Positions 6,269-62,049 of a stretch of 64,000 bases of DNA are shown here, piece by piece. Position numbers and translations under genes: made by a program. Source of the DNA: an uncultured delta proteobacterium (GTDB taxonomy: Bacteria > Desulfobacterota > Binatia > UBA9968); contig CAVSHR010000005.1 in assembly GCA_963727625.1 (NCBI GenBank), positions 640,001 through 704,000 on the forward strand, in the 5' to 3' direction. A model generated the notes under the pieces. It had not been told where the DNA came from. It did no database searches and saw only the letters and a program-made list of their open reading frames with translations. How positions within the stretch are numbered: position 1 is the first letter of the stretch; each line of letters starts with the position of its first letter.

Positions 6269-7243
6269 ATGAGTTTCGATCAACCGCTTGAAATCGAATT
6301 CCCGGTGATGCGCTACGATATCACCCTGCCGCTGCTGGAAGGCCGCGTGGCCGTCGACGGCGTCAAGTTAAAACCGGTCAAATCCTCTTCGATGATCAAC
6401 AAGGAAGATCCCAAGTTGAAAGCCGGTGACTTCGGCTTGATGGACCTCAACATCGGCTACCTCCTGCCGGCCATCGAAGCGGGCTGGGAAATCATCGGCC
6501 TGCCGGTCTTCTCCAAGCGCAAGCCGGTCTATCAGCTGATCTTTTGCCACGCCGATGCCGCCATCCGGGAGCCCAAAGATCTCGCCGGCAAGCGCATCGG
6601 CTCGCGCACTTACCGCACTGCGCTCACCGTGTGGGCCCGCGGCCTCTTGCGCGAACGCTACGGCGTCGACTTCTCGGCGGTGCGTTGGGTTCTCCAAGCG
6701 AAGGAAGTTTTCCCGGTGCACGACGCCAAGCTCAACGTTGAATATGTCGACGACGGCAAGAACATCTCCCAGCGGCTGATCGCCGGCGAGTTGGACGCCA
6801 TCATCACCGATATTTCCGACACCAAAATGTTCGAGAACCTTGAAAACAATCCCAAGGTAAAACGCTTGTTCCCCTATTGCCTCGAAGAAGATCAAAAGCT
6901 CTACCGCGACAGCGGCATCTTCACGCCGGTCCATATGATCGTCATGAGCCGCAAACTCGACCGCGAGCATCCCGAGCTCGCCGGCAAATTCTACGCCGCC
7001 TTCGAAAAGGCCAAAGCGATCGCCTACGACGATATCTTGAGCGACCGCGGCGGTTTCTCGGTCGTCTATTTGCGCGAGCGGATGAAGGAACAGATGAAGA
7101 CCTGGGGCGATCCGTGGAAATACGGCGTCAAAGCGAATCGCAGCACTGTGGATAAGTTTATCAGTTACAACGTCGAGCAAGGCATGATCGGCCAAGCGCC
7201 GTCCTACGAAGACATCTTCGCCGCCGGCACCCTCGACACTTGA
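6269..7243 (+). CDS. 4,5-dihydroxyphthalate decarboxylase-like protein (periplasmic-binding-protein fold, no signal peptide)
   Basis: YDITLPLLEGRV, PKDLAGKRIG, VWARGLL, GIFTPVHMIV, DPWKYGVKANR. Confidence 0.8.
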   Translation: MSFDQPLEIEFPVMRYDITLPLLEGRVAVDGVKLKPVKSSSMINKEDPKLKAGDFGLMDLNIGYLLPAIEAGWEIIGLPVFSKRKPVYQLIFCHADAAIREPKDLAGKRIGSRTYRTALTVWARGLLRERYGVDFSAVRWVLQAKEVFPVHDAKLNVEYVDDGKNISQRLIAGELDAIITDISDTKMFENLENNPKVKRLFPYCLEEDQKLYRDSGIFTPVHMIVMSRKLDREHPELAGKFYAAFEKAKAIAYDDILSDRGGFSVVYLRERMKEQMKTWGDPWKYGVKANRSTVDKFISYNVEQGMIGQAPSYEDIFAAGTLDT

Positions 7244-7330: not shown

Positions 7331-8614
7331 ATGCTTTCCAAAGAAGACAATGAGTTGCTCACTCAAACAAATCCCGACACGCCCATGGGCAAGCTGATCC
7401 GATGCTACTGGGTTCCCGCGCTGCTGTCGCAGGAAATCCCGGCGGTGGATTGCCCGCCGGCCCGCGTCAAATTGTTGGGCGAAGAGTTGGTCGCCTTCCG
7501 CGACACCGAGGGACGGATCGGTCTTATCGGCGAGCACTGCGCTCACCGCGGCACCTCGCTTTTCTTCGGCCGCAACGAAGAGTGCGGATTGCGCTGCGTG
7601 TATCACGGCTGGAAATTTGACGTCGAAGGCAACATCGTCGACACGCCGGCCGAGCCTGCCGGCAGCGACTTCGGGAAAAAACTGCGCCACACGGCCTATC
7701 CGACCCATGAGGCCAACGGCATTATCTACGCCTATCTGGGGCCGCGCCAGCTCATGCCGCTGTTTCCCAATTATGAATGGACTCAAGTGCCGCTGGAAAA
7801 CAGCTACGTGACCAAGTGCCTGTTGGAGTGCAATTATCTCCAGGGGCTCGAAGGCGAGTGCGATTCATCGCATCTCTCCTTTCTCCATCGCGCCTTCACC
7901 AACGAGCGCAACCAGCCTCTCTACAAGAGCGACACCTCGCCGGTTTATGAGACCGAAGAGACCGACTTCGGCGTGCGCTTGATCGCCACGCGCAACACCG
8001 ATCACCAGCATTACGTGCGTTTCTCGGCCTTCGTCATGCCGGTGTACGGCTGCGTGCCGGCGGGCCGGCCGACCAATGAGATGGAAGGCTTCGAAATCCA
8101 CACCTACGTGCCCGCCGACGACACCCATTGCTGGCGCTACGACATCGGCTTTCGCCGCGACCGCGCCGTGCGCGACGACGAAGTGCACCGGCGCAAACAA
8201 ATCCATCCCGACTTCACCAAGGTGCGCAACGCGCGCAACAACTACCTGCAGGACCGCGCCATGCAGAAGACGGTCAACTTCACCGGCATCGAAGACTTTC
8301 TTAACCACGATGCCGCTGCCACCGAGAGCATGGGAGCGATCTTCGATCGCAGCAAAGAACATCTCGGCGTGAGCGACAAGGCGGTGATCGCCGTGCGCAA
8401 GTTTTTATTGACCACGGTGAAGGAGTTGCAAGAAGGCAAGGAGCCGCCCCACGTAGCGCGCGTGGCCGAGCAGAACTGGTTTCCGCATATCGATTGCTTC
8501 GCCCACCTGTTGCCGCGTGACATGCCCTGGCAGCAACACTTCAACTATCTGACCGCCAAAGCAGAAAGAGAAAACCCGGCGTCTTACCAGGCGCGGCGCA
8601 AAGCTGCGTCGTGA
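7331..8614 (+). CDS. Rieske 2Fe-2S aromatic ring-hydroxylating oxygenase, phthalate 4,5-dioxygenase/LigXa-like alpha subunit
   Basis: CAHRG...CVYHGW Rieske motif; EGECDSSHLSFLH mononuclear Fe motif; EHLGVSD. Confidence 0.92.
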   Translation: MLSKEDNELLTQTNPDTPMGKLIRCYWVPALLSQEIPAVDCPPARVKLLGEELVAFRDTEGRIGLIGEHCAHRGTSLFFGRNEECGLRCVYHGWKFDVEGNIVDTPAEPAGSDFGKKLRHTAYPTHEANGIIYAYLGPRQLMPLFPNYEWTQVPLENSYVTKCLLECNYLQGLEGECDSSHLSFLHRAFTNERNQPLYKSDTSPVYETEETDFGVRLIATRNTDHQHYVRFSAFVMPVYGCVPAGRPTNEMEGFEIHTYVPADDTHCWRYDIGFRRDRAVRDDEVHRRKQIHPDFTKVRNARNNYLQDRAMQKTVNFTGIEDFLNHDAAATESMGAIFDRSKEHLGVSDKAVIAVRKFLLTTVKELQEGKEPPHVARVAEQNWFPHIDCFAHLLPRDMPWQQHFNYLTAKAERENPASYQARRKAAS

Positions 8615-8670
8615 CACGAGCGCTTCACCCTTCAAGCGACTGACTCTAAACATCGAGAGGGAATTTTTCC

Positions 8671-9429
8671 ATGAGCAAATCTGACAGAGCCGTCGGCCAG
8701 CAAGACAAAAAATCGAGCAAAACAATCGAGCAAGAGCTCAACATCGCCGCGCAAATTCTCGACTGGGAGATCGGCGATATCTGGGGCCACGTCGGTTGCC
8801 GCCTGCCCGGTGACCGCGGCATCGCCGTGCGCATGTTTCGCCGGGCCGAGCAAAGCAAGAAGGACTGGCTGGTACATTTCGATTACGCGCTGCAAAAACT
8901 CTCGGGCGTCGGCACCATCCCGCGCGAGTCGGTCATCTATACGGAAATTTTCAAGGCCCGGCCCGATGTCAACGCGGCGGTGCACTGCCACGCCGCCATG
9001 TGTGTAGCTCTGAGCCTGGCGGACAAGCCGATCGATTGGGTGCATATGCAATCGTCGCGCTTCAAAGGCGGCACGCCGATCTTTCCTCGGCCGATTTACA
9101 TTTTGGACGAGTCCGAGGGCGCGGCCTTGGCAAAGTGCTTGGGCGACGCCTCCGCCGTCATGATCAAGGGACATGGCATCGTCACGGTGGGCGAGACTAT
9201 CGACGAGGCCTGCATGAACGCTCTCTACATGGAACGCACGGCCAAAATCATGGCCATCGCCCGCTTGCACGGTTACGCAGGACCCACCACGGATGCTATC
9301 GACACCCTGACGGAAAGCCGGAAAAAGCTATTTCGCCGGCCCAGAGACGAAATGTTCCACTCTGCCGAGTGGAACTACTATGCCGACAAGGTCAAGCGCG
9401 GCGAGCATTGGACCCGAGGCTGGAATTAA
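8671..9429 (+). CDS. Class II aldolase/adducin family protein
   Basis: WGHV, IFKARPDVNAAVHCH, MIKGHGIVTVG. Confidence 0.9.
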   Translation: MSKSDRAVGQQDKKSSKTIEQELNIAAQILDWEIGDIWGHVGCRLPGDRGIAVRMFRRAEQSKKDWLVHFDYALQKLSGVGTIPRESVIYTEIFKARPDVNAAVHCHAAMCVALSLADKPIDWVHMQSSRFKGGTPIFPRPIYILDESEGAALAKCLGDASAVMIKGHGIVTVGETIDEACMNALYMERTAKIMAIARLHGYAGPTTDAIDTLTESRKKLFRRPRDEMFHSAEWNYYADKVKRGEHWTRGWN

Positions 9430-9468
9430 GCAGATCATAGTACATAGAAGTAACCGGAGGAGCCTGCG

Positions 9469-10542
9469 ATGGCGGAATTTGTAATCGACGCCGACGGCCA
9501 TATCATGGAAGACCACAAGGAGATCTTTGGCCGTATCAAGGGCAACTTCGGTGAAATGAACTGGCATTCGACCTGGCCGATGTTCGACGCGGACGGCTGG
9601 CAGCGCGGCCTGTCGCGCAAGGGCAAGCGCGAAGATCCCGACGCCGAAGCCTGGATTCGATTTCAGGATGAAAACGGCATTGACTGCGCCGTCCTCTATC
9701 CGACCTCCGCGCTGGCGATCGGAATGATTCAGCTGCCCGCCTGGGCATCAGCGCTGGCGCAAGGCTACAACGACTGGCTTTACGACCGCTTCACCAGCCA
9801 AACTCCGCGCTTGAAAGGCGTAGCCCTGCTCGCTCCGCAGGACCCCAAAGCTGCCGCCGCCGAGCTGCGCCGTTGTGTCAAAGAACTCGGCTTTTGCGCC
9901 GGTCTGCTACCGTCCGTAACCAACAACCGGCTGCCGCTCTATGGCTCGCCGGTGTTCCACGAGATTTACGACGAAGCCCAGCGACTCGACGTGCCGCTTA
10001 CCATCCACGGCGGCGTCAGCCAAAACTTGGGCCTCGATCGTGTCGCAAGCTTTCTGGAAGCGCACATGCTCGAGCACCCGCTCGGTCTATTTTTGCAAAT
10101 TACCAATATGATGTTTCAGGGCGTGTTTCAGGAGTTTCCCAAGCTGCGCGTGGCCTACCTCGAAGCCGGCGCCGGCTGGGTGCCGTTCATGATGGACCGG
10201 ATGGAGGAAGACTACGAAAAATTCGCCGCCCGCCTGGCGCCGCACTTGAAGAATCCGCCCAGCCATTTTTTCACGAGCGGCAATATCTTCGTCACCATGG
10301 AAGTCGAAGAACGCACCGCCCCTTACATCGCCGACCTGTTCCGCGACGACGTCATCATGTGGGCCTCCGACTTTCCCCACGAGCGCGAGCGGGATCAGTT
10401 CGGCGGCGACCTCCCCCACTTAAAAGCACGTAAGGATCTATCCGACGACTTCAAGCGCAAAATGCTTTACGACAACCCGGTGCGGTTCTACCGCTTCAGC
10501 GAAGGCGATATCGCGGCGGTAAAGAAGACAAAAGGCAGTTAA
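9469..10542 (+). CDS. Amidohydrolase family protein (Amidohydro_2)
   Basis: IDADGH, YLEAGAGW, MWASDFPH; GGAGGAG RBS. Confidence 0.93.
   Translation: MAEFVIDADGHIMEDHKEIFGRIKGNFGEMNWHSTWPMFDADGWQRGLSRKGKREDPDAEAWIRFQDENGIDCAVLYPTSALAIGMIQLPAWASALAQGYNDWLYDRFTSQTPRLKGVALLAPQDPKAAAAELRRCVKELGFCAGLLPSVTNNRLPLYGSPVFHEIYDEAQRLDVPLTIHGGVSQNLGLDRVASFLEAHMLEHPLGLFLQITNMMFQGVFQEFPKLRVAYLEAGAGWVPFMMDRMEEDYEKFAARLAPHLKNPPSHFFTSGNIFVTMEVEERTAPYIADLFRDDVIMWASDFPHERERDQFGGDLPHLKARKDLSDDFKRKMLYDNPVRFYRFSEGDIAAVKKTKGS
10405..10542 (+). repeat. Amidohydrolase 3'-end repeat, copy 1 (resident gene end)
   Basis: Encodes GDLPHLKARKDLSDDFKRKMLYDNPVRFYRFSEGDIAAVKKTKGS*; recurs at 11495 and 12383. Confidence 0.9.
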
Positions 10543-10715
10543 CTGCGATATTTAACCGGCGGTCTCTGCCCGACGGCGCTGTGTTTTTCGCGACGCCGGT
10601 TTCTTTATCGAAAGGTTTTGGCAACCCCTAAGGCGCTTGCCGCGAGCCAGGGTGCGTCGTCGGCCACATTATAGATCCACGCGAAGGCTGAACCGGAATC
10701 GGCTCAAGCCACCGG

Positions 10716-11054
10716 CTAGATTCCGACAATCTCGTTCAATCCTTCAACGATCTGAGCTATTTCTTCCGGAGATGCCCTTCCAATGAGATTTCCAATTCTT
10801 TCAACCGCAAGCGTTCGAATTTGGCTAATCTTCACCCACGACTTTTTCGGAAGCCCCCTGGCATGAAGTTCAAGGGTTAGAGGAAAGCCTGCGCGTTGAG
10901 GTTGACTCGTGAGAGCAACAGCAATCACGGTTCCAGAACGTTCATTAAAGACGTCCTGACTTAGAATCAAAACCGGACGTTGCCCTGCTTGTTCTCGCCC
11001 TCGTACCGGGTTCAAGTCGGCCCAGCGAATTTCTCCCCTCAGTATTCGGGCCAC
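10716..11054 (-). CDS. mazF: Type II toxin, PemK/MazF family endoribonuclease
   Basis: [27 protein letters not shown]. Confidence 0.95.
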
Positions 11055-11281
11055 TCCGCTAAGTCCTCCGAAAGACCCTCTTCTGCAAGCGCCTTCTCAA
11101 ACGTGGAATCAAGTTTCGCGCACTCTTGGGCTAGGCGACTTTTCTCAAGCCGCGCGAGTTTCTCCGTAACAGCTTCCTCGATGGCCTGGCTACGGTTGGG
11201 AAAGACCTGTTTCTTAACCAGTTGATCGAGACGATCCAGGGTGGATTCATCTAAAGAAATTGCAACTTTGGATCTTGCCAT
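11039..11281 (-). CDS. Ribbon-helix-helix antitoxin (CopG/MazE-type)
   Basis: KVAISLDES...[11 protein letters not shown]; overlaps the toxin start. Confidence 0.9.
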
Positions 11282-11344
11282 GACTCACCTCAAGGTATGA
11301 CGATACTTCATACCATAATCTGGGTCAAGCCACTGTGTCTTTGA

Positions 11345-11475
11345 ACCTAACGATTAAGTGAGCTGCCATAAATGGCGACAAACGCCGGTCGCCTTGCGTT
11401 CGAAGACGGGTCTGACGATAAAGTTCAAATCATTCGCAATATCCGCTTAGCTACCTCTACTTGTCAACGTGAAGG
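11345..11475 (-). repeat. Non-coding repeat A (attI/promoter-like), homologous to 14090-14222
   Basis: Shared blocks ATTAAGTGAGC, GACAxAxGCxGGTC, AAGTTCxAATCxTTCGCxATATCCxCT; minus strand contains TTGACA and ends in GTTAGGT (GTTRRRY) upstream of the antitoxin. Confidence 0.65.
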
Positions 11476-11494
11476 TTCGCGCCAAACGCCGCCG

Positions 11495-11635
11495 GTTCGG
11501 CAGCGACCTGTCCTGCCTTTACGCAAAGACTTGTCCGGTGACTTCAAAGGAAAATGGCTCTTCGACAACCCTGTGCGGTTTTACCGCTTCAGCGAAGGCG
11601 ATATTACGGCGGCGAAGGGGGCAAAAGGCAGCTGA
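11495..11635 (+). repeat. Amidohydrolase 3'-end repeat, copy 2 (degenerate gene fragment)
   Basis: Encodes ...RKDLSGDFKGKWLFDNPVRFYRFSEGDITAAKGAKGS*. Confidence 0.9.
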
Positions 11636-11655
11636 AGGCCCTTCGCCACGACGGC

Positions 11656-12027
11656 TTACGACCAGAATCGGCGCAGGTCGAACGATAATTGACGATGGCG
11701 TTTGATGGCTATGAAATAAATTCGAGTTCGCCTGACCAAATAGAGCACAACATAATCGTCGACCACGAATTCACGCAGGTTGTCGCCGGCCCGAAGCCTT
11801 TCGCGAAGACGTTCAATCAGCTTCTCCGCGTCAGCCGAACCGGCATGGTGCCCCAAGAACGAACGGCCAGACAAAGGGAATCGGGATAATTGCGGACAGA
11901 TATCGTCGAATAAACGATCGAGCAAACGTTGAAACGCTATACGCCCCTCGACGGATAGAAACTCTTGAATTTCGTCTAAGTTGGCGGTGAAGTTCTGAGT
12001 GAAAAAGAGCTGCGACTTACCGGCCAT
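11656..12027 (-). CDS. Type II toxin, RelE/ParE family
   Basis: FTQNFTANLDEIQEFL, LSRFPLSGR, YVVLY...IYFIAIKRHRQ; downstream of a Phd antitoxin. Confidence 0.85.
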   Translation of the reverse strand: MAGKSQLFFTQNFTANLDEIQEFLSVEGRIAFQRLLDRLFDDICPQLSRFPLSGRSFLGHHAGSADAEKLIERLRERLRAGDNLREFVVDDYVVLYLVRRTRIYFIAIKRHRQLSFDLRRFWS

Positions 12028-12298
12028 ACCGGGCTTTCAGTTTCGCGGCGCTGACAACCTTTCCGGCCTCCACATCATCCAATCCTCGAACGGCCTCCTC
12101 AAGTAGCCTAATGTGGATATGTTCGCGCTCCAATCGATGGTAGTAGTCCAACCGTTCCGCATCGATCAAGGCCGCGCAACTCTCGCCATTTTTTGTGAGA
12201 ATTTTTTCCCCGTGATCTCGCTGGACCTCAGCGCAGAGCTCGGTCAACTTTGACCGCGCCCGCGTGAGCGAGATGATGTCCTTCGATGAAATTGGCAT
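12017..12298 (-). CDS. Antitoxin, Phd/YefM family
   Basis: IISLTRARSKLTEL, ILTKNGESCAALI; AAGGAG RBS. Confidence 0.9.
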   Translation of the reverse strand: MPISSKDIISLTRARSKLTELCAEVQRDHGEKILTKNGESCAALIDAERLDYYHRLEREHIHIRLLEEAVRGLDDVEAGKVVSAAKLKARYGR

Positions 12299-12382
12299 CG
12301 GGCTGTCTCCTTTTAGAAAAGCTTAAATAACGTACAGAATTCTGTCAACTACCAACTCTGGTGCACCTCGCAATGAAGCGGT

Positions 12383-12537
12383 GGCGACCTCCCCCACCTC
12401 TACGCCCGCAAGGACCTATCCAACGATTTCAAACGGAAAATGCTCTACGACAACCCGGTGCGCTTCTACCGTTTCAGCGAAGGCGATATCGCGGCGGTGA
12501 GGCAGGCAAAAGGCAGCTAACTTCGACATTTGATCCG
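12383..12537 (+). repeat. Amidohydrolase 3'-end repeat, copy 3 (in-frame, includes about 17 nt of the 3' UTR)
   Basis: Encodes GDLPHLYARKDLSNDFKRKMLYDNPVRFYRFSEGDIAAVRQAKGS*; post-stop CTTCGACATTTGATCC resembles CTGCGATATTTAACC of copy 1. Confidence 0.92.
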
Positions 12538-12633
12538 TTAGTCTTTGACTGACGTTGCCGCGCTTTTCACGGCGCCGTTTTCTTTTCCAAAAAAATCTAG
12601 CAACCACTTAGCGCCACCGAACGGGACAGTATT

Positions 12634-13090
12634 TCACCGACCTTGATCGCATCTACGAACGCGTATGGCTAGTACTACACCCAAGGCGCCTGCGATCGAC
12701 ACCGCCGCAAGGAGAAGCAAAGCGATATCGATGCGACACCCATTACATCGTCCGCCTCGAGGTGCCAAGAGCCGCTGGCTCGCGAGAACACAAAGATAAG
12801 CATCAACGGTAACCCAAGGAGCGCAACACTCAACAGTATGTGGTAGCCGAACGCAAGTATCGGAGACGTAACAGACCTCGACACTCTTCTCCACTGCGCA
12901 AAGACGCTCACCGGCAGAGTGGAAACACACAGCAAACAGGCAAGAAATATGGGCAGCCGCGTGTGACGGTTGTAGAGGAAGAAGTTTGAGCTATACGCAA
13001 AGTGAAGGCCCAAAACCAGACGCCCACCCAGATTATACCGGCGACTGCCAACAGCGTTTTCTTCATTAGTCTTTGTAGAGAACTATCCAT
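12634..13090 (-). pseudogene. Multi-pass membrane hypothetical protein, frameshifted
   Basis: Hydrophobic segments in three overlapping ORFs (12908-13090, 12675-13013, 12634-12930) join into one protein of about 4 TMs. Confidence 0.5.
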
Positions 13091-13157
13091 CTATTACAAC
13101 ATCAAGAAAAGTAGTAGCCGTCACTGCAGCGTCCACTGCAATACGTCGTTAGAAACC

Positions 13158-14060
13158 CTATCTGCGATACTCTTCAAAGAAGCTGTCGTCTAGGTCGTAA
13201 GTTGTGATCGGCCGCAAGCCGAGTTCGAGCGATGCGAATAGATCAACTAGTTTCTCGCCATCTACGAGCTCGATCGGGGGAGCGCCATCCCGTGTTGCTT
13301 CGCGACGCGCTTCTGCAGAAAACGAGCCGGTTGTAACGATGAGACCCTTATCGGCGCGTCCTTGCATCGCGCCACGAAAATCTCGCACATGGCTTGGTGA
13401 GACCGATCCCACAAATCGCTTACACTGAAAGAGGACACGAAAGCTGACGAATGCGTTAAGGGCCAAAACTCCATGGCCATCAATTCCACCGTCACCACTT
13501 TTGCCGGTCACTATGACCTGCTCAAATCCGGCTTCTCGCAGTAGACGCTGACATATCCGTTCGAATCCACCTGGCGGAAGTCCTTTTAGAATTTCAAGTA
13601 ATTTTGAACGATAGTCGCCTTTATCGGAATCCGGTGCCAGCTGCTCAGCATCGCTTTCACTAGGCTTGGCAGCAACTGGAGCTTTAGATTGCGCGCTTGA
13701 TTGCGAAGTGAGAACAGTGCGAGCACTCACATCCCGCGACCCTTGTTGCACACGCTCTACAAGCTCTGAAATTGCACCCGTGCTAAGTTGTCCACACCTT
13801 GCGCCGGCATCCGTCAGCTTCCACACCCCGTGACGCGACCGATCGATGAGTCCTCCCTCTGCGAGATAGAAGCGTGCCCAGTGTACTTGGTTTGGGAAAC
13901 GTTGCCCACCCGCAGGGTTGATTTGATCTAGGATATCGTCTCCGACGTTCTCGTTCCTTGCGACTCGCTCAACGACTTCGCGAGGTCGCGCGGATCCGCC
14001 AAGTTCAGTCAGAGCACGAAGAACTGGATTGATCCGTTTCGAGAATTCTGGGCCAGTCAT
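13158..14060 (-). CDS. mrr: Mrr restriction endonuclease (type IV)
   Basis: Mrr_N wHTH (FPNQVHWARFYL...GVWKLT); FE...GDGGIDG...QCKRF catalytic motif; PIELVDG. Confidence 0.95.
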   Translation of the reverse strand: MTGPEFSKRINPVLRALTELGGSARPREVVERVARNENVGDDILDQINPAGGQRFPNQVHWARFYLAEGGLIDRSRHGVWKLTDAGARCGQLSTGAISELVERVQQGSRDVSARTVLTSQSSAQSKAPVAAKPSESDAEQLAPDSDKGDYRSKLLEILKGLPPGGFERICQRLLREAGFEQVIVTGKSGDGGIDGHGVLALNAFVSFRVLFQCKRFVGSVSPSHVRDFRGAMQGRADKGLIVTTGSFSAEARREATRDGAPPIELVDGEKLVDLFASLELGLRPITTYDLDDSFFEEYRR

Positions 14061-14089
14061 ATCGCGATAGTAAAATTCTTAAGCCGTTC

Positions 14090-14222
14090 TTATTATTAAG
14101 TGAGCCGTCGTTATCTGTGACACATGCGGGTCAGGCATCCTAGCGTCGGAGTCCAGTTAAGTTCTAATCGTTCGCGATATCCACTGGCCACCTTAAGCCG
14201 TAAACGCAACGATAGTTGGGCG
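14090..14222 (-). repeat. Non-coding repeat B (attI/promoter-like), upstream of mrr
   Basis: Homologous to repeat A; begins GCCCAAC (RYYYAAC) on the minus strand. Confidence 0.65.
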
Positions 14223-14274
14223 GTGTCGGTTTTGCTAGCGCTCGGTGCCTTATTTCACCAAAGTATAAACGAGC

Positions 14275-15270
14275 TTACCGCCCCATAAGTTTTTTCAGAA
14301 AACCTTCTTCTTCCAGCTTTTTCAAATAGCGGTCGTTAATAAACTTTTTCGCGTCGGCTTTGGCTGCCTTCGGATCGGTTTCCGCTAGGGTATCGACCAC
14401 CGCCTGCATCGCCACTAAAGAAGGATAGGGAATGTCGGGGATGCGCGCCTTATTGTACTCATAAGCCTCTTTAAGCAGCTCCATGTCGTTCACTTTGCTG
14501 AACTGGGAGAGCGCCTTTAAGGTGTATTCCGGCTCGGTTTTGAAAATCTTGATCGCCTCAAGGTAGGCACGCAGAAAATTTAACATCCGCGGCTCATTTT
14601 TCTGCATCATTTGAGCACTGCCGCACATCCCCGTATTGAAGTACGTGATGTTGAGCGCGCCGGCGTCGGCAAGAATATTGAAATTGAATTTCTTCGCCTC
14701 GGCGCCGAAGGGAGCGTTGAAAATCGTCCCGTCGATGCCGCCCGACTTGAGCGCCACCAGCCGCTGGGTTTCATTGCCGATTTGGAGAATCGTTACGTCC
14801 TTGGGATCGATGCCGACTCTCTTGAGCAGGACTTTCGTGCTGAAGTCGGAGGAAGAACCAAAGCGGCTGATGCCCAATCGTTTGCCCTTCAGATCGGCGG
14901 GCTTTTTGATGTCCTGGCGCGTCACCATTTGATAGCCCATTTTGTCATCGGTCATCGCAATATAGACGATATCCGCGCCTTTCAGGTTGGCGATAACGCC
15001 CGGAGGGCCGGTCAACTGAGCCAAGTCGATGTCCCCGGAAACCAGCGCTTGAATCGCTACCGACCCGCCCGGAACATAAACCAGCACCGACGATAGACCG
15101 TACTTGGCATACAGTCCCCGCTTCTCGGCAATCCACGCAAGTAGCGCATGGGGATTCACCGAGCTGTAGGCGATCCGAATCGGCTCGGCAGCCCGTGCGG
15201 AAACCGCGCCAAAAGAAGAAAAAACCAAACTGACGATAAATAAAACGATACTGCCGACAAATCGTGCCAT
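14275..15270 (-). CDS. ABC transporter substrate-binding protein, NMT1/SsuA-like
   Basis: Signal peptide from MARFVG (ATG 15270); LKGKRLGISRFGS. Confidence 0.9.
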   Translation of the reverse strand: MARFVGSIVLFIVSLVFSSFGAVSARAAEPIRIAYSSVNPHALLAWIAEKRGLYAKYGLSSVLVYVPGGSVAIQALVSGDIDLAQLTGPPGVIANLKGADIVYIAMTDDKMGYQMVTRQDIKKPADLKGKRLGISRFGSSSDFSTKVLLKRVGIDPKDVTILQIGNETQRLVALKSGGIDGTIFNAPFGAEAKKFNFNILADAGALNITYFNTGMCGSAQMMQKNEPRMLNFLRAYLEAIKIFKTEPEYTLKALSQFSKVNDMELLKEAYEYNKARIPDIPYPSLVAMQAVVDTLAETDPKAAKADAKKFINDRYLKKLEEEGFLKKLMGR

Positions 15271-15293
15271 GAATTTACCCCCAAATGTTTTTC

Positions 15294-16337
15294 TCAAAGC
15301 GCAAACAACGCCTTGGCATTCTTGTAGAGAATCTTCTCTTTGGTCTCGTTCGACAGCTGCTTGTGGCCGCGCAGGTCGTGCAAGTTGTGCGGAAACTCGT
15401 TGTCCCAGTGCGGGATGTCCGAGGCATAGAGAAAGTGATCGGCGCCGACGTAGTCGACGGTAGCCGCGAGCTGTGACTCGCCCGGCTCGACGCTGAAATA
15501 CAGCTTCGACTCCCGCACGATCTCGCTGGGCTTTTTCTTGAGCAGCGGCATTTCGATCTCCGCGCGTTTCTCCCAATGCTCGTCCAGCCGGTCGAGATAG
15601 TACGGCAGCCAGGTCGCGCCGATTTCCAAGAAAGCCAGCTTCAACTTTGGAAAGCGAATCGGCAAACCCTGGCAGACGATGCTGGTGAATTGCAATAGAA
15701 TCCCGACGGGAAACGCGTACGAGTGAACTTCGGCGAAGGTGGCCAAACTCGATGTACCGAGCTCGCGCGAGGTGTTGCGTGTGCCATGAATGCCCAGGAC
15801 AATGCCGAGACGCTCGGCTTCCTCGTAGATTGGATCATAGAAGGAATCGCCGAGCGCCAGCGGCAATCCGGTCGGCAGGATCTCGAAGCCTTTCAAGCCC
15901 AACTGCGTCACTGCCCGGCGCATTTCCTCGGCGGCAGCTTTCGGCGAGCGCATCGGCAGGCAGCCGACGCACGAGAGCCGATCCGAGCGCGCGTTGTATT
16001 CCTTGGCGAAGTGGGTGTTGCTGGCGCGGCTGACGGCGATTTGATACGGCACCTCCTGATTCTTGGCGATGTTTCCCGAACCGGTCGGAAAGCAAATCGC
16101 TTTCTCGATATCGTATTCGTCCATGAGCTTGTGCCAGCGGTCGACTTGCTCGGCGGCGCCCAGCCCTTTCCACTCCCGTGCCATCTCGAAGGAGTTCATC
16201 ATGTCGTTGTCCCAGGGCTGATCGCCGGGCCAAAGCGGCGTCGGCCGTTTGATCCAGGGTTCTTCGAGATATTTGCGGATGTCGGCTTGCCGTTCGAGAA
16301 CGTGACCGTCGGTATCGATGACCGGAAAATTCTCCAT
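15294..16337 (-). CDS. Amidohydrolase family protein (Amidohydro_2)
   Basis: IDTDGH, FLEIGATW, YASDIPHWD. Confidence 0.93.
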   Translation of the reverse strand: MENFPVIDTDGHVLERQADIRKYLEEPWIKRPTPLWPGDQPWDNDMMNSFEMAREWKGLGAAEQVDRWHKLMDEYDIEKAICFPTGSGNIAKNQEVPYQIAVSRASNTHFAKEYNARSDRLSCVGCLPMRSPKAAAEEMRRAVTQLGLKGFEILPTGLPLALGDSFYDPIYEEAERLGIVLGIHGTRNTSRELGTSSLATFAEVHSYAFPVGILLQFTSIVCQGLPIRFPKLKLAFLEIGATWLPYYLDRLDEHWEKRAEIEMPLLKKKPSEIVRESKLYFSVEPGESQLAATVDYVGADHFLYASDIPHWDNEFPHNLHDLRGHKQLSNETKEKILYKNAKALFAL

Positions 16338-43331: not shown

Positions 43332-44318
43332 TCATACATGATCGACGTCCCCGCCGTCTTCAGGGTCGGTGTCCAGGAACAATTCTTCAATCGGCAAGGC
43401 TTTGCGGGTTAATCCCTGCCGGTGGCAGTAACCGATAATCGTTTGAAGATTTTTCCGATTGGCTTCGCCGAGGCCGTAGGCCCATGGATCGGGGCCCAGA
43501 AGCTTACGCTCTTCCTCGTATTCGGTTCTGACCCACGCCAGCGGTGTGATACGCGGATTGGCCAGCCGTTTGTAAGCGATGTTCTTCGCCTTCTCGAACG
43601 CCTTGACCAGGCTGACCGGCGCCCAGGGATATTTCTCGACGATCTCCTGCTTGATCACGGTGACATGCATGATCGGAAAGATACCTGTCTGCTGGAAATA
43701 CTCGCGCTCGACGGCTTTGTAATCTGGGAACAAGCGCGCCACCCGCTTATCGCCATCGACCAGCGGCTGTGGAATATACGGATTGATCATCGCCGGGATT
43801 TCGCCTTCGGCGAGCATGGCATCCATCGACTCGCCAGCGGCGATCATTTCAATTTTAAGCCCAGGCGGAGGGTCGAAGGGCACATCTTCGCTACGGTCGA
43901 CGACCCAGGTAATCGACTCATGCGGTACGCCGTAGTGCTGCTCGAAGATGCCGCGCAGCCAGATGTTGCCCGCCGGTTGGAAATTCGTGCCGCCGACCCG
44001 TTTGCCGATCAGGTCCTTGGGTGTTTTGACTCCCGAGTTAACATTGACGAAGGCAAAGCCGTGGCGAAATCGCCGGTGGAGAAATACCGGAATCGCCGCC
44101 AACGGTTCGCCGTGGTCGCGCGACATCAAATAGGCGCCGACGTTGAATTCGCAGACGTCGAACTCCTGATTGCGCGCCATGCGCCAGTGGCGCTCGCGCG
44201 GGCCATGACCGGTGAGAATTACGAGCTCGAGGCCATCGGCCTCGACCGCGCCTTCCTTCAGCGCGCGAATAATCTCATAGTCGCCGACCGCGACCGAAAG
44301 TCTAATCTTGGTTGCCAT
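43332..44318 (-). CDS. 4,5-dihydroxyphthalate decarboxylase-like protein
   Basis: FDVCEF, IPVFLHRRFRHG, TGIFPIMH, DPWAYGLGEANR. Confidence 0.85.
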   Translation of the reverse strand: MATKIRLSVAVGDYEIIRALKEGAVEADGLELVILTGHGPRERHWRMARNQEFDVCEFNVGAYLMSRDHGEPLAAIPVFLHRRFRHGFAFVNVNSGVKTPKDLIGKRVGGTNFQPAGNIWLRGIFEQHYGVPHESITWVVDRSEDVPFDPPPGLKIEMIAAGESMDAMLAEGEIPAMINPYIPQPLVDGDKRVARLFPDYKAVEREYFQQTGIFPIMHVTVIKQEIVEKYPWAPVSLVKAFEKAKNIAYKRLANPRITPLAWVRTEYEEERKLLGPDPWAYGLGEANRKNLQTIIGYCHRQGLTRKALPIEELFLDTDPEDGGDVDHV

Positions 44319-44439
44319 CGGGCGCTCTCCTTCCATCGGCCGCAAAGAGCAAAACGCATAGCGCAAAGCGACCTGACTCCACTCCCCACCCTATGTCCCC
44401 CGCTCCTTGCCCTTTGCGAACCTTCTACTTCCCATACAG

Positions 44440-44998
44440 CTTCTGAATAGATCAGATTCACCATCGCCCGCGTGGTGTCGAAGACGTATTCGACGACAAA
44501 GGGCGGCGCGTGCAGGTGTGTCTGCTCCGGCGCTTCGCAATGGGTTGGATGAATGAAAACCACCGCGGCGCGCCGGTTGAGCTCGTCGAAAACCGGATCG
44601 AACAGCGGATCGCCGAGATATCGGTCCATCACGCTGGAGAAGAGTCCGACGCCGTCGAGCCGCAATACATCGAGCGCATAGGAAATCTCCTCCAACGCGC
44701 CGTCGACATCGGGCAGCGGCAGCAAAGCGAAGGCGCCGAAACGCGGCGCATGGTCGCGCGTCCTTTGCGCTTGAAACTCGTTGCAATTGCGCGCCACGGC
44801 GCCCAACCGCTTGAGGTTTTTCAAGACGACGCGCGGCGTGAGCGAGGTGATCGCGGTTTGGATATGCCAGCGGTCCATCGACTGCAGTTGCATTTCGGTG
44901 TCCGGCGGCTTGATCGGCATCGATTCATCGGCATAGCGCGGCGGCACCACGTGGTGGTGCACGTCGATGCGCCAATTGCCGGGTTTTATCTGACTCAT
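44440..44998 (-). pseudogene. Amidohydrolase (6-methylsalicylate/ACMS decarboxylase-like), C-terminally truncated
   Basis: RIDVHHH, YLGDP, VFIHP, FDTTRA, then homology stops (no SHxGG or FGSDxP); ORF runs on into heptamer-repeat sequence. Confidence 0.75.
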
Positions 44999-45336
44999 TG
45001 CCTCGGTTGCTCTAACGTCCGTCGGTAACACTCAATCGAGTCGGCTCTACCGGTGCAGCCAAACCTAGTTGATCGACAGCGGACCTGTCAACATAAACCG
45101 ACATGCCCTCCAATCATTGATGCGTGTCAAGCTAACCTAACGGTGTAAAGCGCCGGCACAAAGAGGGCACCGAATGCGACAGGGCCGGCGCCAAATGCAG
45201 GCCGATGAGCCGGTTCGCGGCGGGGGCGAGGTCGGTGGATAATACCGGCAAGACGAACAATAAAGTTGGCGCTGTCCATCGCCGGATCACAATGCCGGAA
45301 TCGGTACCCAGACTTTACTCCTCCCCTACTGTGAAA

Positions 45337-47149: not shown

Positions 47150-47915
47150 TTATGTCGTGCTCGAAAATCCGCCGTCAACGATGATGATCTCGCCGGTGAC
47201 GAAGCGGTTGTGCAAGATCAGGCTCAGCATGCTGTCGGCGACGTCGTCTTCCGTACAACAGCGCTTGAGCGGCGTATATTTCGCTCGCCGGGCCATCAGA
47301 CCGTCGTAATTCTCCGCCAGCGTCCGTTTCATCCACCCGCCTTCGATCCATCCCGGCGCCACCGCGTTAACGCGGATCTGCGGGCCGAGCGCGTTGGCCA
47401 GCGTTTTGGTTAGATTGGCGACCGCCGCTTTGCTCGCGGCGTAGGGCAGAGGCTGCGCGCTCGGCCGCAAGCCGGCGATGCTGCAAGTGTTGACGATGCA
47501 GCCGTTGGGCGACTTTTTCAGCAACGGCGCCGCGGCGCGAGTCACGAGAAACAGACCGAGGACGTTGACCGAAAAGACCCGATTCCAGGCCTCGACGGTC
47601 ATTTCCCCGAAGTTTTTGGGCTCGATAGCGACGGTGGTGCCAGCATTGTTGATCAGCACGTCGAGCCGGCCGAACTCTTTTTCCGTCGCCGCGAGCATCG
47701 CGCGCACACCGGCCTCGTCACTCACGTCACAACGGTAAAGCAGCGTTTTGGCGCCCACTGCCTCGGCTTCGCGCGCGGTGAATCTCGCCGCCTGCTTCGC
47801 TGCGACTGTAGTTGACGACTACATCGTAGCCGTTTTTCGCCAGCGCGGTGGCCGCGCTGCGGCCGATGCCTGTGGCGGCGCCGGTGACGAGAGCTGCCGG
47901 TCTTTCAGGATTCAT
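47150..47915 (-). CDS. Short-chain dehydrogenase/reductase (frameshift near 47785)
   Basis: TGAATGIG, NNAG, YAASK, VNAVAPG, VDGG split over two ORFs. Confidence 0.88.
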
Positions 47916-47945
47916 TGTTGCACCTTTAGATCGCAATGTTGGCGC

Positions 47946-48938: not shown

Positions 48939-49036
48939 TATCGCTCCTCAATAACTCAGATTGCGCAGCGAGAAAAGCTAACACCGCGCCGTCGGATCTG
49001 TCAATCAATCCCGCGGTAATCGCTTCAATCGAACAG

Positions 49037-49146
49037 TAGCCTGACCCTTTTCTTGCTTTTGGTCCGACGTAGCAGGAATTTCTCGCAATTGGCCAATGTG
49101 AGACAAAAACCATGACCAAAATCTTGGCTAGCAGTGAGAAAACAGC
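49037..49146 (+). repeat. Direct repeat copy 1 flanking the MNT-HepT module
   Basis: TGGTCCGACGTAGCAGGAATTTCTCGCAATTGGCCAATGTGAGAC...GCAGTGAGAAAACAGC nearly identical to 49940-50026. Confidence 0.92.
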
Positions 49147-49183
49147 AAGATTAAAGACCTCACCCTCAGATTTCTTTTTGTGG

Positions 49184-49513
49184 TCAGAGAATTTTTTCAA
49201 GGTCGGCTTGCAATATCGGCAGGTCTTTGGTGACCGTGCTCCAAACAACATCCGAATCAACGTCGAAATACGCGTGGATCAAACGATTACGCATTCCACT
49301 GATATCTTGCCAGGGAATGGCGCCGTATTGGGTTCGGATTTCGGCCGATACCTTGCCGGCCGCTTCACCGATTATCTCCAGCTCTTTGACCAGGGATAAA
49401 ACCAGCTTGCGATCCGTGTCCAGGTCCGAACGCTGCTTGCCTTGAACGAACTCCAATGCCTCATTAGTCGCGTCCAACATATGTTGGAGCCGTATGCGGT
49501 CATGCCTCTGCAT
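49184..49513 (-). CDS. HepT/DUF86 HEPN ribonuclease toxin
   Basis: [20 protein letters not shown] (RX4HXY). Confidence 0.93.
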
Positions 49514-49811
49514 ACTGGACGGTTGCCGTGGACAAGACTTCCTCTCGGAAATAGCGGCTTAGCTCCTTGGGAGTGCGCAAGTCGACCTTGCGACCTCCCA
49601 GAATGACTGACAGCTCCCGTTCCATACGCGCCAAATCGAGCAAACTCGGCGCAGCGCCAGCCCGGAACTCGACCAGGAGATCGATATCGCTATCTGGCCG
49701 AAAGTCATCTCTCAATGCCGAGCCGAACAACGAAAGCTTTCGAATCCCGTTGCGCTTGCAGAACTCGGCGACCTTATCGGCCGGAAAATCGATGTTCTTC
49801 GTCTTGCTCAT
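49500..49811 (-). CDS. Minimal nucleotidyltransferase (MNT/MntA) antitoxin
   Basis: [28 protein letters not shown]. Confidence 0.93.
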
Positions 49812-49922
49812 TTTCGAACCTTCAAACTGTCGCTGACTATTGCGGCTTGCTCCTGATGATCCTTATACCATCATTTTGCCCGCCTGCCGAGGGTGACAAA
49901 AGCGACGGCTTTAATCGAAAAG

Positions 49923-50026
49923 TAGCCCCTTATCTTGCTTGGTCCGACGTAGCAGGAATTTCTCGCAATTGGCCAATGTGAGACGAAAACCATGACCCAA
50001 ATCATGGCTAGCAGTGAGAAAACAGC
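49923..50026 (+). repeat. Direct repeat copy 2 flanking the MNT-HepT module
   Basis: About 87-bp core with 3 substitutions versus copy 1. Confidence 0.92.
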
Positions 50027-50686: not shown

Positions 50687-50956
50687 CTAATGTGGGCCGA
50701 TTAAGTCCACCCTCGACTGCGGCTTTTCTGCCAAACGCAGGTCCGCAGTGACCGGCAGTTCAAACAAATCGCTGCGCAGAAACCGGGTCGAGAAGAACAA
50801 TACCTCGAGATTTTCGATCTCCCCGGTCTTTGGGTTGAGCCTAGCGATGACCTCGTCTCCCAGTTCTTCGGATTCCTGTTCGGGATAGGGGGGCGTTTTG
50901 TTTATGTAGAGAATGTCTCCTTGGCGGTCGTAATTAAATGTTAGCTTCGCTTCCAT
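50687..50956 (-). CDS. DUF2283 domain protein (putative antitoxin)
   Basis: FNYDRQGDILYI, GEIENLEVL. Confidence 0.8.
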   Translation of the reverse strand: MEAKLTFNYDRQGDILYINKTPPYPEQESEELGDEVIARLNPKTGEIENLEVLFFSTRFLRSDLFELPVTADLRLAEKPQSRVDLIGPH

Positions 50957-50967
50957 AGGGAAACTAA

Positions 50968-51201
50968 CTACGGATTGGCGGCCAGATCACGCACATGAGC
51001 AATTTCTTTTGGCTTGCTGGGACGAACCTGCGTCGCTGTGAGGGTTACGATGGCAATAGTTTCACCGTCCAAGGTCGTGAACTCGACCTCGTAACCTTTG
51101 CCTTTTTCATGGACCAGTACGACGGTGCCGATATCGCCTTGTGCCAGTCCCTGTTCCGGCAAATCACATGTAAGAATCACGTCTTCGAGTTCCTGAATCA
51201 T
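50968..51201 (-). CDS. DUF4926 domain protein (putative antitoxin/immunity)
   Basis: ELEDVILTCDLPEQGLAQGDIGTVV, YEVEF. Confidence 0.85.
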   Translation of the reverse strand: MIQELEDVILTCDLPEQGLAQGDIGTVVLVHEKGKGYEVEFTTLDGETIAIVTLTATQVRPSKPKEIAHVRDLAANP

Positions 51202-52172
51202 GAACGCCTCCTTCTCAGAGGATGAGCCGTGACGAACCTCGGTACGTCTCCATCCCTATTAATACACCGGTTTTGCCAGAGTCGAGAACAGGATGTCAAA
51301 TTGTCGATGACAGAATTACCGTGCGGACGGTTACAGATTACGAAATCTATTCGAGTCGGACCAAGCCATGCCCTTGCTTCGTCAACAGTTTCATCCCAGA
51401 GAAAGGTGTTTTGATGCCTTAGAGCCTCATTTGCAGCGGCAAATTTAAGTCCGTAAGCTTCCGGTGACTCGTGCAGTGCATAACTGCCATTCTTCTCTAT
51501 CACATCGCGATGTGCGGCTTTTGCACCAAGCTGATTCTTGACGCTCTCGACGAATGCCAGGCTTCCAACCGCAATCGCTTCCGTCCAGCATTCTTCGCGG
51601 GCCGCCAAGCCGTTCCCCAGACCTTGCTCGGCCCACTGGCGCTGTGTTGATTGAAAATCTCGGCGATCCGCAAACCCGCTCAACTCGCTCAAACTCTGTA
51701 AATCGATTATGCCGTAACGCTTGGGCGGTTTTTGGATCTCAGAATAACCGCTCTCCTTCCACTGTCCTGGATGATTCATCACCCCGGCACGAACCATGTT
51801 GAGATCGATATAGATCAGACAGCGATGCAGGTGTTCATCGGATTCAATCGCGGTGGCGTGGTAGCGATCCTCCCAGAACGCGCCCCGCTTACCTTTGCGC
51901 TGGTTATATTCCTGGGCAGTGCGGCCGGCGATGAGCTGCATGCTTTCTGCGATGACGTTCGCGCCGGTGTCTTTGACCAAAAGATGGATGTGGTTGGAGG
52001 TAACCATATAATCAAGAACGGAAAGGCCGTAACGCTTCTTGGCTTCGTGCAGCCAATGCAAATAGCGCCGTCGATCGCGCGCAAACTTGAGTAGAAATTT
52101 GCTTTGATGGCATCGGTGAGTGATGTGCCAGATGTGGCCAGGCAGGAAATAACGATTCGCTCGCGGCATCAC
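51198..52172 (-). mobile_element. REP-associated tyrosine (Y1 HUH) transposase, RAYT-like, with a read-through C-terminal tail
   Basis: WHITHRC, YMVTSNHIHLLV (HUH), FWEDRY, YIDLNMVRAG. Confidence 0.9.
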
Positions 52173-54518: not shown

Positions 54519-54759
54519 CGCGATTGAGCAGAAGAATCATCAATAGATTCACGTCAAAAGCCCATTTTCCAAGATTAAGCGACTGATTTGCCTAGGCTCG
54601 ATTACACTCAATGCGCACCGACCCATTATATCCGCCGCTGCAAAAGGAGTTTTGCCGCGACCGGTACGCGGTTTTACTGGGTTCCATTCCCTCGAATATC
54701 GTCGCGGTGGGTGTTCGGCTGACAATCGGAAATAATAGATTCCTTCGGTCCGACCCAGC

Positions 54760-62046: not shown

Positions 62047-62049
62047 AGG

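Follow-up and report, generated by a model that had tools for sequence, protein, structure and literature searches.

Displaced ends of an amidohydrolase gene alternate with toxin-antitoxin pairs at a variable locus of Binatia-type genomes, a probable outcome of homology-driven recombination

Introduction

How do toxin-antitoxin (TA) pairs come to be stacked between copies of the end of an ordinary metabolic gene, with no integrase beside them? The question is raised by a 64,000-nt stretch of DNA (the window) from an uncultured delta proteobacterium of the Binatia (GenBank assembly GCA_963727625.1, contig CAVSHR010000005.1, positions 640,001 to 704,000), in which the 3' end of an amidohydrolase gene occurs three times, with a different TA pair in each interval. 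An original prediction, made from the letters of this DNA, had described the locus as a chronological stack of units of about 1 kb, each made of a gene end and a TA pair, added without an integrase and stabilised by addiction. The mechanisms by which chromosomes acquire TA loci have been called poorly characterised by Belot et al. (2026, PMC13617665), who propose mobile elements, together with homologous recombination at flanking core genes, for the small TA islets that they describe. Here we examine the anatomy of the array, its variation among relatives, its junctions and the divergence of its gene ends.

Results

The 3' end of the host gene is present three times in the window

The host gene (9469..10542, forward strand) encodes a 357-aa protein of the Amidohydro_2 family (Pfam PF04909, E 2e-31). 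The list of open reading frames (ORFs) and a repeat search placed its last ~140 nt at three positions in direct orientation, 10401, 11494 and 12379. As ungapped segments of 153 nt, copy 2 (11494-11646) is 66% and copy 3 (12379-12531) 86% identical to copy 1 (10401-10553). By blastn, copy 1 aligned with copy 3 at 79.4% over 233 nt with gaps (E 1e-54) and with copy 2 at 79.3% over 111 nt (E 4e-23); this similarity is far above chance expectation for 64 kb.

Copy 1 (10401..10677) is the working gene end (10401-10542, stop TAA at 10540-10542) followed by native-type downstream sequence; 10543-10677 resembles the sequence behind the outer end copy of one related locus (L002; 77% over 135 nt) and behind the single gene end of another (L017; 72% over 105 nt). 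Copy 2 (11494..11635, stop TGA at 11633-11635) is a displaced and partly decayed gene end, with a 4-nt deletion near its 5' part and more replacement changes than copy 3; faint similarity may extend leftward to about 11455. Copy 3 (12379..12611) is an intact, in-frame displaced gene end (stop TAA at 12518-12520), also with native-type downstream sequence. Its stop codon lies at the same place as that of copy 1, and 14 of the 20 differences between the two are at third codon positions. Similarity between copies 1 and 3 persists for ~92 nt beyond the stop (to 10632 and 12611), across a terminator-like hairpin (in copy 3 at 12560-12575, with a T tract after it), so that the repeated unit there measures ~230 nt. 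The similarity of copy 2 ends at its own stop codon. All three copies, which lie on the forward strand, share the tail CAAAAGGCAG, and copies 1 and 3 share CTCCCCCAC. Rfam matched the repeat only once, by chance (E 0.91, 19 bits with a threshold of 50 bits).

Both intervals hold a TA pair on the reverse strand. In the first, an RHH (CopG-type) antitoxin gene of 80 aa (11039..11281; PF01402, RHH_1, E 4e-9) precedes a MazF/PemK-type toxin gene of 112 aa (10716..11054; PF02452, E 3e-29, profile positions 2-108 of 109); the two overlap by 16 nt, and the minus strand has a promoter-like site at 11328-11300. In the second, a Phd/YefM-type antitoxin gene of 93 aa (12017..12298; PF02604, PhdYeFM, E 2e-6) precedes a ParE/RelE-type toxin gene of 123 aa (11656..12027; PF05016, E 8e-8), with an overlap of 11 nt. 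The Phd match scores 28.1 bits, slightly below the 29.8 cut-off, and spans profile positions 2-53 of 74; profile coverage is near full for both toxins and for the RHH antitoxin. Both pairs thus consist of small, adjacent, co-oriented and overlapping genes with the antitoxin first, the layout of type II systems, and by gene order and domains we regard them as intact putative type II TA pairs. A conserved block upstream of Phd (12322..12348), which includes the 12-nt palindrome ACAGAATTCTGT (12334-12345), is likely to be the promoter/operator of the ParE/Phd operon and marks the right end of that module. The GC content at third codon positions (GC3) is 0.42 for MazF and 0.42-0.64 over the four TA genes, lower than in most neighbouring host genes (0.70-0.80).

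A 38-nt repeat (11353-11390 against 14095-14132, 71%) was considered as native intergenic DNA carried with the MazF module; it was dropped as probably chance because blastn of the spacer 11282-11493 against the related loci and the window gave no match.

A Pfam search between 0.1 and 17 kb of the window found no integrase or transposase domain, and an inverted-repeat search over 8000-15000 found no arm pairs at the module borders. The mobility genes of the window, an IS110-family transposase (54611-55666) and a Y1_Tnp protein (51198-52172), lie ~40 kb from the array. The original prediction was therefore confirmed by the repeat search, blastn and Pfam in its three direct gene ends with a different opposite-strand TA pair in each interval, and in its in-frame copy 3 with mostly third-position changes; its statement that no integrase or transposase is present holds in and beside the array.

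Number of gene ends and cargo differ among related genomes

A search of genome contigs with the amidohydrolase gave 573 confirmed relatives, of which 80 were kept. Close orthologous loci, with 70-95% aa identity to the host gene, are numbered L001-L028; all are metagenome-assembled genomes (MAGs), labelled Candidatus Binatia, 'delta proteobacterium', Syntrophobacter and others, and at these orthologous loci the Rieske-aldolase synteny upstream is conserved. The basal, 'empty' state is seen in L001, L010, L012, L013 and L015, where the convergent NMT1 gene lies ~100-190 nt past the amidohydrolase stop, and by this measure the window holds ~3.7 kb of extra DNA at the same spot.

Of the 28 loci, 22 yielded a gene end of at least 100 nt with the three copies as blastn queries; the sequence of L020 and L025 breaks off inside the gene end, and that of L019, L022, L024 and L027 before it. 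A single end copy was found in 19 of the 22, a figure that is an upper bound because some loci have little downstream sequence (for example 675 nt in L003). The other three have two copies (L002, starts 5415 and 6385), three (L006, starts 2379, 3431 and 4324) and four (L023, starts 10913, 13289, ~14365, which is degenerate, and 15244). The locus thus carries one to four end copies over 23 genomes (the window and the 22 loci), with differing cargo, as displacement arrays do. This locus comparison bears out the proposal that module number varies among related MAGs; an invariant locus, which the original prediction had named as telling against it, was not seen.

The amidohydrolase frame is broken in the long-contig assemblies L023 (10001-11072, with the ORF stopping at 10807), L021 and L026, and tblastn covers residues 1-268, 1-270 and 1-186. 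The breaks could come from sequencing errors that shift the frame or could mark true pseudogenes, in which case the working end of L023 would itself be unselected. On the upstream side, the gap between the aldolase and amidohydrolase genes is 40 nt in the window (9429-9469) and 1.5-2.5 kb in relatives (L001 7527-10001, L002 3009-4504), so that either this side of the host gene is variable too or the window has a deletion there.

A ParE/Phd pair of the same sizes (123 and 93 aa) is found at the orthologous locus in four of the 28 loci (L002, L006, L007 and L023), with 69-80% (ParE) and 78-88% (Phd) aa identity to the window. In the window and in L002, L006 and L023 an end copy stands immediately before it (in L023 this copy is degenerate), and the distance from the stop of the end copy to that of ParE, by ORF coordinates, is 20 nt in the window, 28 nt in L002 and 14 nt in L006. 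Homology of the five aligned modules begins just past the stop of the preceding end copy and spans ParE and Phd; the block upstream of Phd is nearly invariant in all five, and homology fades ~15-25 nt beyond it. There follow ~20-140 nt of unrelated filler and then the next end copy. The full-length ends directly before ParE (window copy 2, L006 E1 and L023 E2b; end copies of a locus are written E1, E2 and so on) finish in ...CTGA, as does only one of the 27 other aligned ends. This shared finish weakly suggests that an end and ParE/Phd travel as a unit.

Other cargo varies. The second interval of L006 holds a PIN/VapB pair (VapBC), L002 has an orphan Phd-like gene beyond its outer end copy, and the first interval of L023 contains a thiamine pyrophosphate (TPP)-enzyme gene of 566 aa. 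All six TA operons within arrays are on the strand opposite to the host gene, with the toxin end toward the preceding end copy. The presence of ParE/Phd behind an end copy in four loci supports a unit of gene end plus TA pair. There is no fixed ~1-kb size or insertion point, since left limits range from about -139 to -289, and the cargo is not confined to TA pairs, given the TPP-enzyme gene between two ends in L023. A PIN-domain gene with a small upstream ORF, TA-like in appearance, was also observed between two NMT1 genes downstream of the L006 array (6447-7134), with no end copies.

Displaced ends have different limits and no common core

Self-comparison of each locus gave the left limit of every displaced end, counted from the stop codon (+/-10 nt). 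In the window they are -139 for copy 3 and -145 (possibly -185) for copy 2; in L023, -148 for E3, -189 for E2 and -289 for E2b, which has an internal deletion; in L006, -166 for E3 and -219 for E2; and in L002, -170 for E2. Eight displaced ends therefore have eight different left limits. Right limits vary as well, lying near the stop before different cargo and at +92 before native downstream sequence. An alignment of the eight displaced ends revealed no common identical core, and no integrase or transposase domain was detected in the 51 ORFs scanned from the variable regions of L002, L006 and L023 (the variable-region subset of 117 listed ORFs, plus 4 from other ORF lists).

Variable limits and the lack of a detected integrase domain argue against site-specific integration, and a fixed att site or an integrase was rejected on these grounds: neither an integrase gene at a border nor a fixed crossover core was found. 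Nor does the window array have the features of an integron: the search of the window at 6-17 kb gave no integrase, and what is repeated, in direct orientation, is the end of a coding gene. What is found is a main gene followed by displaced 3' fragments that keep a conserved sequence of variable length, the form of a displacement array. The description of the array as integrase-less thus extends to the scanned ORFs of the relatives.

Young displaced ends differ mainly at synonymous sites

The ends were compared by diagnostic alignment positions and by codon counts (Nei-Gojobori over 46 codons), giving synonymous (Sd) and nonsynonymous (Nd) differences. Copies 1 and 3 of the window differ by Sd 13 and Nd 7, with a proportion of synonymous differences (pS) of 0.43 and a ratio of nonsynonymous to synonymous divergence (dN/dS) of 0.10. 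For L002 E1/E2 the counts were Sd 6.5 and Nd 3.5; for L006 E1/E2, E1/E3 and E2/E3 they were 10 and 0, 16 and 2, and 14 and 2; and for L023 E1/E2, where E2 has an in-frame stop, 9.5 and 4.5. Across five young pairs taken together, nonsynonymous changes make up 17 of the 72 differences, compared with a share of 0.31 in orthologue pairs, whose dN/dS of 0.03-0.13 shows the same pattern as the young displaced ends. If half of the divergence were neutral, a nonsynonymous share of ~54% would be expected (binomial P ~1e-7 for the observed 17/72); with a neutral share of 25%, P is still 7e-4. The pS of young ends (0.2-0.5) is near between-species values.

This bias toward synonymous change suggests that the young ends diverged from the working end while both were coding. 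On the codon pattern, they appear to be former working ends of diverged alleles that were brought together recently, not decaying local duplicates, and the earlier view of copy 3 as a former end or an allele from a relative gains support from the same dN/dS values. Older copies have decayed: dN/dS is 0.19-0.25 for window copy 2 against copies 1 and 3, and indels mark L023 E2b and E3, whose dN/dS is 0.64 and 0.45. Their decay indicates that the fragments are not maintained by selection.

Copies within one genome also share marks of their lineage. Codons specific to L006 recur in each of its three copies, and the copies of L023 are similar to L026. These marks point to donors that were close kin, though diverged at silent sites (pS 0.2-0.5), and close-kin donors are what homology-dependent entry requires.

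Arrays turn over and are not simply chronological

In a tree of the gene body (first 780 nt, 25 rows), L023 and L026 are sisters, with branches of 0.006 and 0.022 and support of 97/89. In each, the working end is followed by the TPP gene (97% identity). After it, L023 has three more end copies and ParE/Phd, and L026 has 2.8 kb of unrelated DNA; of the end copy after the TPP gene, all that is left in L026 is a degenerate relic of ~30 nt from the left part. The relic suggests that the array predates the L023/L026 split and that a later replacement broke within an end copy. From this comparison, addiction, if active, would not make arrays permanent, since they are also broken up; stabilisation of arrays by addiction, part of the original prediction, is something that we infer.

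The strictly chronological order did not hold. A simple stack built in place would make the outermost copy 3 the oldest, and it is copy 3 that is intact (dN/dS 0.10) and the inner copy 2 that is decayed (4-nt deletion, dN/dS 0.19-0.25). More likely, a block of MazF/RHH, copy 2 and ParE/Phd, with or without copy 1, arrived ready-made and recently displaced copy 3; alternatively, a unit was inserted at an inner copy. The 135 nt of native-type sequence after copy 1 implies that the donor MazF module lay behind a complete native-type gene end and terminator.

Neighbouring genes and a second repeat-bracketed TA pair

Between copy 3 and the right flank lies an Mrr-type restriction endonuclease gene (13158..14060, reverse strand; Mrr_cat E 2e-29, Mrr_N E 5e-19; GC3 0.47). 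None of the 28 related loci has it, and it is further non-native cargo of the same variable spot. In the ~550 nt between the downstream sequence of copy 3 and this gene (12612-13157), Pfam recognised no ORF, and none of the 28 loci has a match to them. To the right of the Mrr gene stand the conserved NMT1, Amidohydro_2 and RmlD genes, of which the NMT1-type substrate-binding protein gene (14275..15300, reverse strand; Pfam NMT1) forms the conserved right flank.

Self-blast of 81 sequences (1,286,714 nt), set to direct repeats 80-600 nt long with a spacing of 400-4000 nt, gave 23 pairs. Twelve are at the amidohydrolase locus (three in the window, one in L002, three in L006 and five in L023), one brackets a HepT/MNT pair, one is an internal protein repeat, and nine are in five distant loci and are presumably tandem paralogues, judging from their lengths and low identities. 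The original prediction had proposed to scan the genome for other gene-end duplications around TA pairs; in these 81 sequences, one more repeat-bracketed pair was found. This is a HepT toxin gene (49184-49513; HepT-like, E 2e-25) with an MNT antitoxin gene (49500-49811; NTP_transf_2, E 2e-13) on the reverse strand of the window (49022..50026), within an intergenic direct repeat of ~125 nt (49022-49146 and 49908-50026) that is 90% identical with gaps and 97% over an 88-nt core. The pair sits between a DprA-like gene and another Amidohydro_2 gene, showing that gene ends are not the only flanks that can be duplicated.

Other repeats of the window, in paralogous glycine-zipper coding sequence (18750/22942) and within a Flg_new protein (53217-53803), are unrelated to the array. 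At 50687-52172 a DUF2283/DUF4926 pair of small genes, possibly TA-like, adjoins the 324-aa Y1_Tnp protein, which is of the IS200-like/REP (repetitive extragenic palindrome)-associated type. A defence-type cluster (56201-63837) comprises a HerA/DUF87 ATPase, a type I restriction specificity subunit and a ResIII/SNF2 helicase truncated by the window end, and includes several ORFs with no Pfam match (59828-62341). Two further genes may be frameshifted or pseudogenes: a short-chain dehydrogenase seemingly split into 69 aa and 202 aa (47727-47936 and 47150-47758), and an Amidohydro_2 ORF (44258-45031) that spans the first 161 of 289 profile positions.

Discussion

Our analysis indicates that the arrays come from a process that recurs in related Binatia-type MAGs and not from faulty assembly, and we think it probable that this process is displacement of the gene's 3' end by general, homology-driven recombination without a dedicated recombinase. 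The target would be the variable spot between the convergent amidohydrolase and NMT1 genes. DNA entering from kin would bring the 3' part of the same gene with a downstream cassette, usually a type II TA operon facing the gene, and the 3' sequence common to both would let it pair with the resident gene; a homologous crossover in that sequence would put the incoming end on the gene. On the far side, the join could be illegitimate (homology-facilitated illegitimate recombination), could follow from single-crossover, Campbell-type insertion of a circle with one end copy, or, in an existing array only, could be a second homologous crossover in another end copy. On every route the resident end would not be deleted but moved downstream as a silent fragment, and stacks would grow by repeated events or by transfer of ready-made blocks. 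The direct repeats would also permit clean loss by recombination; TA addiction would select against cells that lose the cassette, which may explain why TA pairs are the usual surviving cargo.

Several observations weigh against this account or limit its detail. The same data fit all three joining routes alike and cannot tell them apart, and with one genome per species no recombination intermediate, excised circle or same-species empty allele was seen. Sliding identity along the gene, together with the identity of each end to 14 relatives, gave no breakpoint within the window gene and no sign of which of copies 1 and 3 is native (both 73-84%). Variable limits and unrelated junction filler fit homology-facilitated illegitimate recombination, but window copy 3 resembles L023 E3 in its left limit, and these two alone (2 of 31 aligned ends) show a C-to-T change in the first conserved words, so that some junctions may be inherited with the module and not be independent illegitimate joins. 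L007 has its ParE/Phd module with no flanking end copies at E <= 0.01. The ParE and Phd similarities are compatible with the gene tree, and some of the array may be of old, vertical descent; the lineage marks shared within one genome would also fit gene conversion. On the codon counts, the window pair alone (7 of 20 differences nonsynonymous, P 0.07) is not significant for purifying selection, and the pooled pairs are not fully independent (two share L006 E1), with a neutral expectation taken from site counts that ignores transition bias.

A more far-reaching account goes beyond ours and makes the gene end plus TA operon a self-propagating, recombinase-free mobile cassette. Recombination between end copies would free a circle with one end copy and the TA pair; with the end copy as its built-in homology arm, the cassette would home by a single crossover to the same gene of naive kin, and the TA pair would punish loss by the reverse reaction. 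We consider this unlikely; were it true, HepT/MNT would be a second example, and TA pairs (occasionally other genes) might have a general route to colonise and stack, with long diverged flank duplications as its footprint. It is less probable still that ParE/Phd and a duplicated end arose once by an old local duplication, were inherited vertically with similarity kept by gene conversion, and were lost from most lineages by repeat recombination. Such a history would account for ParE/Phd at the same locus in five species with similarities not conflicting with the gene tree, for the lineage-specific marks shared by copies within a genome, and for the ~30-nt relic in L026, by which the array predates the split from L023. 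But conversion erases differences, and changes arising later in silent copies should be mostly replacements, whereas the L006 pairs have synonymous to nonsynonymous ratios of 10:0, 16:2 and 14:2 at pS 0.32-0.51; moreover, junction fillers and left limits are not common to L002, L006 and the window, and the cargo between copies differs among genomes.

A direct repeat of a target gene's 3' end around foreign DNA is the classic signature of an integrative island. The intervals might then be worn-down elements of the tyrosine or serine integrase type, integrated in tandem at a 3'-end att site, each with a replacement end and with only the addictive TA pair left. TA pairs are plausible last survivors of such elements, and Belot et al. 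propose streamlining of mobile elements to TA-only islets (PMC13617665). Against this stand the lack of any integrase or transposase domain in the window array or in the scanned array ORFs of L002, L006 and L023, eight displaced ends with eight left limits and no common identical core, intervals of merely ~0.9-2.4 kb, and a cargo that is in one case an ordinary TPP-enzyme gene shared with the sister genome; we regard worn-down islands as improbable. A strain-chimeric contig, in which the allele ends of different strains were stitched serially, deserves mention because all close relatives are MAGs and the end copies resemble alleles of different strains. It is very improbable, as the copies, at 14-34% divergence, differ too much for an assembler to confuse them and have unique intact operons between them, the same architecture is present in three independent assemblies of other projects, one on a 227-kb contig, and decayed copies occur as well. 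The architecture also resembles silent-cassette systems, and the in-frame ends in the window (copy 3) and L006 could form a programmed store of alternative C-termini for tail switching by recombination. The encoded tails are nearly alike (0-2 aa differences among L006 copies and 5/46 in the window), so that switching would change nothing, and older copies decay; a tail store is hardly credible.

Displacement by general recombination, the explanation that we favour, has counterparts among known systems. Integron cassette arrays and Xer-dependent pdif modules are likewise stacks of ~1-kb modules, with or without promoters and often TA pairs, with repeated sites between them and no recombinase inside. 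They use short defined sites (attC, or 28-nt XerC/D sites) and a site-specific recombinase, whereas here the modules are separated by a protein-coding gene end, 110-290 nt long and variable in its limits. Closer is the 'C-terminal displacement' described for rhs genes (Jackson et al. 2009, PMC2935791), attributed to homologous recombination with circles bearing a core fragment of variable length, by which old tips are shunted downstream. As here, the rhs arrays consist of a main gene and a string of displaced 3' fragments, each with a conserved stretch of variable length and with small genes between; their number varies among relatives, and circular intermediates from kin are proposed with no dedicated recombinase (PMC2935791). 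Displaced rhs tips are non-homologous polymorphic toxin domains with cognate immunity genes, whose replacement alters protein function (PMC2935791). The present ends, by contrast, are conserved and nearly synonymous, belong to a metabolic amidohydrolase, and alternate with autonomous opposite-strand type II TA pairs, the end serving as a homology arm only. Since they encode nearly the same 46 residues of an Amidohydro_2 gene, the array appears to work like displacement at rhs, CDI (growth inhibition that depends on contact) and type VI secretion system (T6SS) loci but falls outside the polymorphic-toxin class.

A similar 'sequential displacement' was proposed for T6SS effector-immunity modules of V. 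cholerae, with a crossover in the anchor and an illegitimate join (Kirchberger et al. 2017, PMC5361080). New modules there are set beside a conserved upstream anchor, old ones shift downstream and whole arrays later move by homologous recombination, as we suggest here. The T6SS arrays retain orphan immunity genes that are of value against kin (PMC5361080), whereas the amidohydrolase locus has silent end fragments without evident value and intact TA pairs. Homology-assisted illegitimate recombination has also been discussed as a source of small variable segments (PMC2884548). The TA islets of Belot et al. are, like these arrays, small TA-only spots without a mobility gene, with high turnover and more than one acquisition at the same spot; for some ParE/RelE loci that study gives Tn3 links as well as duplicated 24-nt res-like palindromes, and a term search of the main text returned no direct repeats, illegitimate recombination or duplicated ends of flanking genes (PMC13617665). 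We found no description in the open-access literature of TA pairs stacked between copies of the end of a housekeeping gene. What is new here relative to known displacement arrays is the metabolic host enzyme, the conserved ends and the autonomous TA cargo.

For annotation, in-frame fragments of a gene end beside TA pairs should be taken as relics, not as small genes. How TA pairs reach chromosomal sites that lack a mobility gene can be addressed by comparative genomics, through diverged flank duplications around TA pairs, and by transformation. One such route, on which the pairs need no mobility enzyme of their own, would have left a legible trace at the amidohydrolase locus, with the gene tail as homology arm and a dated fragment for each event. 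It extends the logic of displacement from polymorphic toxin loci to an ordinary metabolic gene, suggesting that displacement is a general by-product of recombination among kin and not an adaptation of toxin systems.

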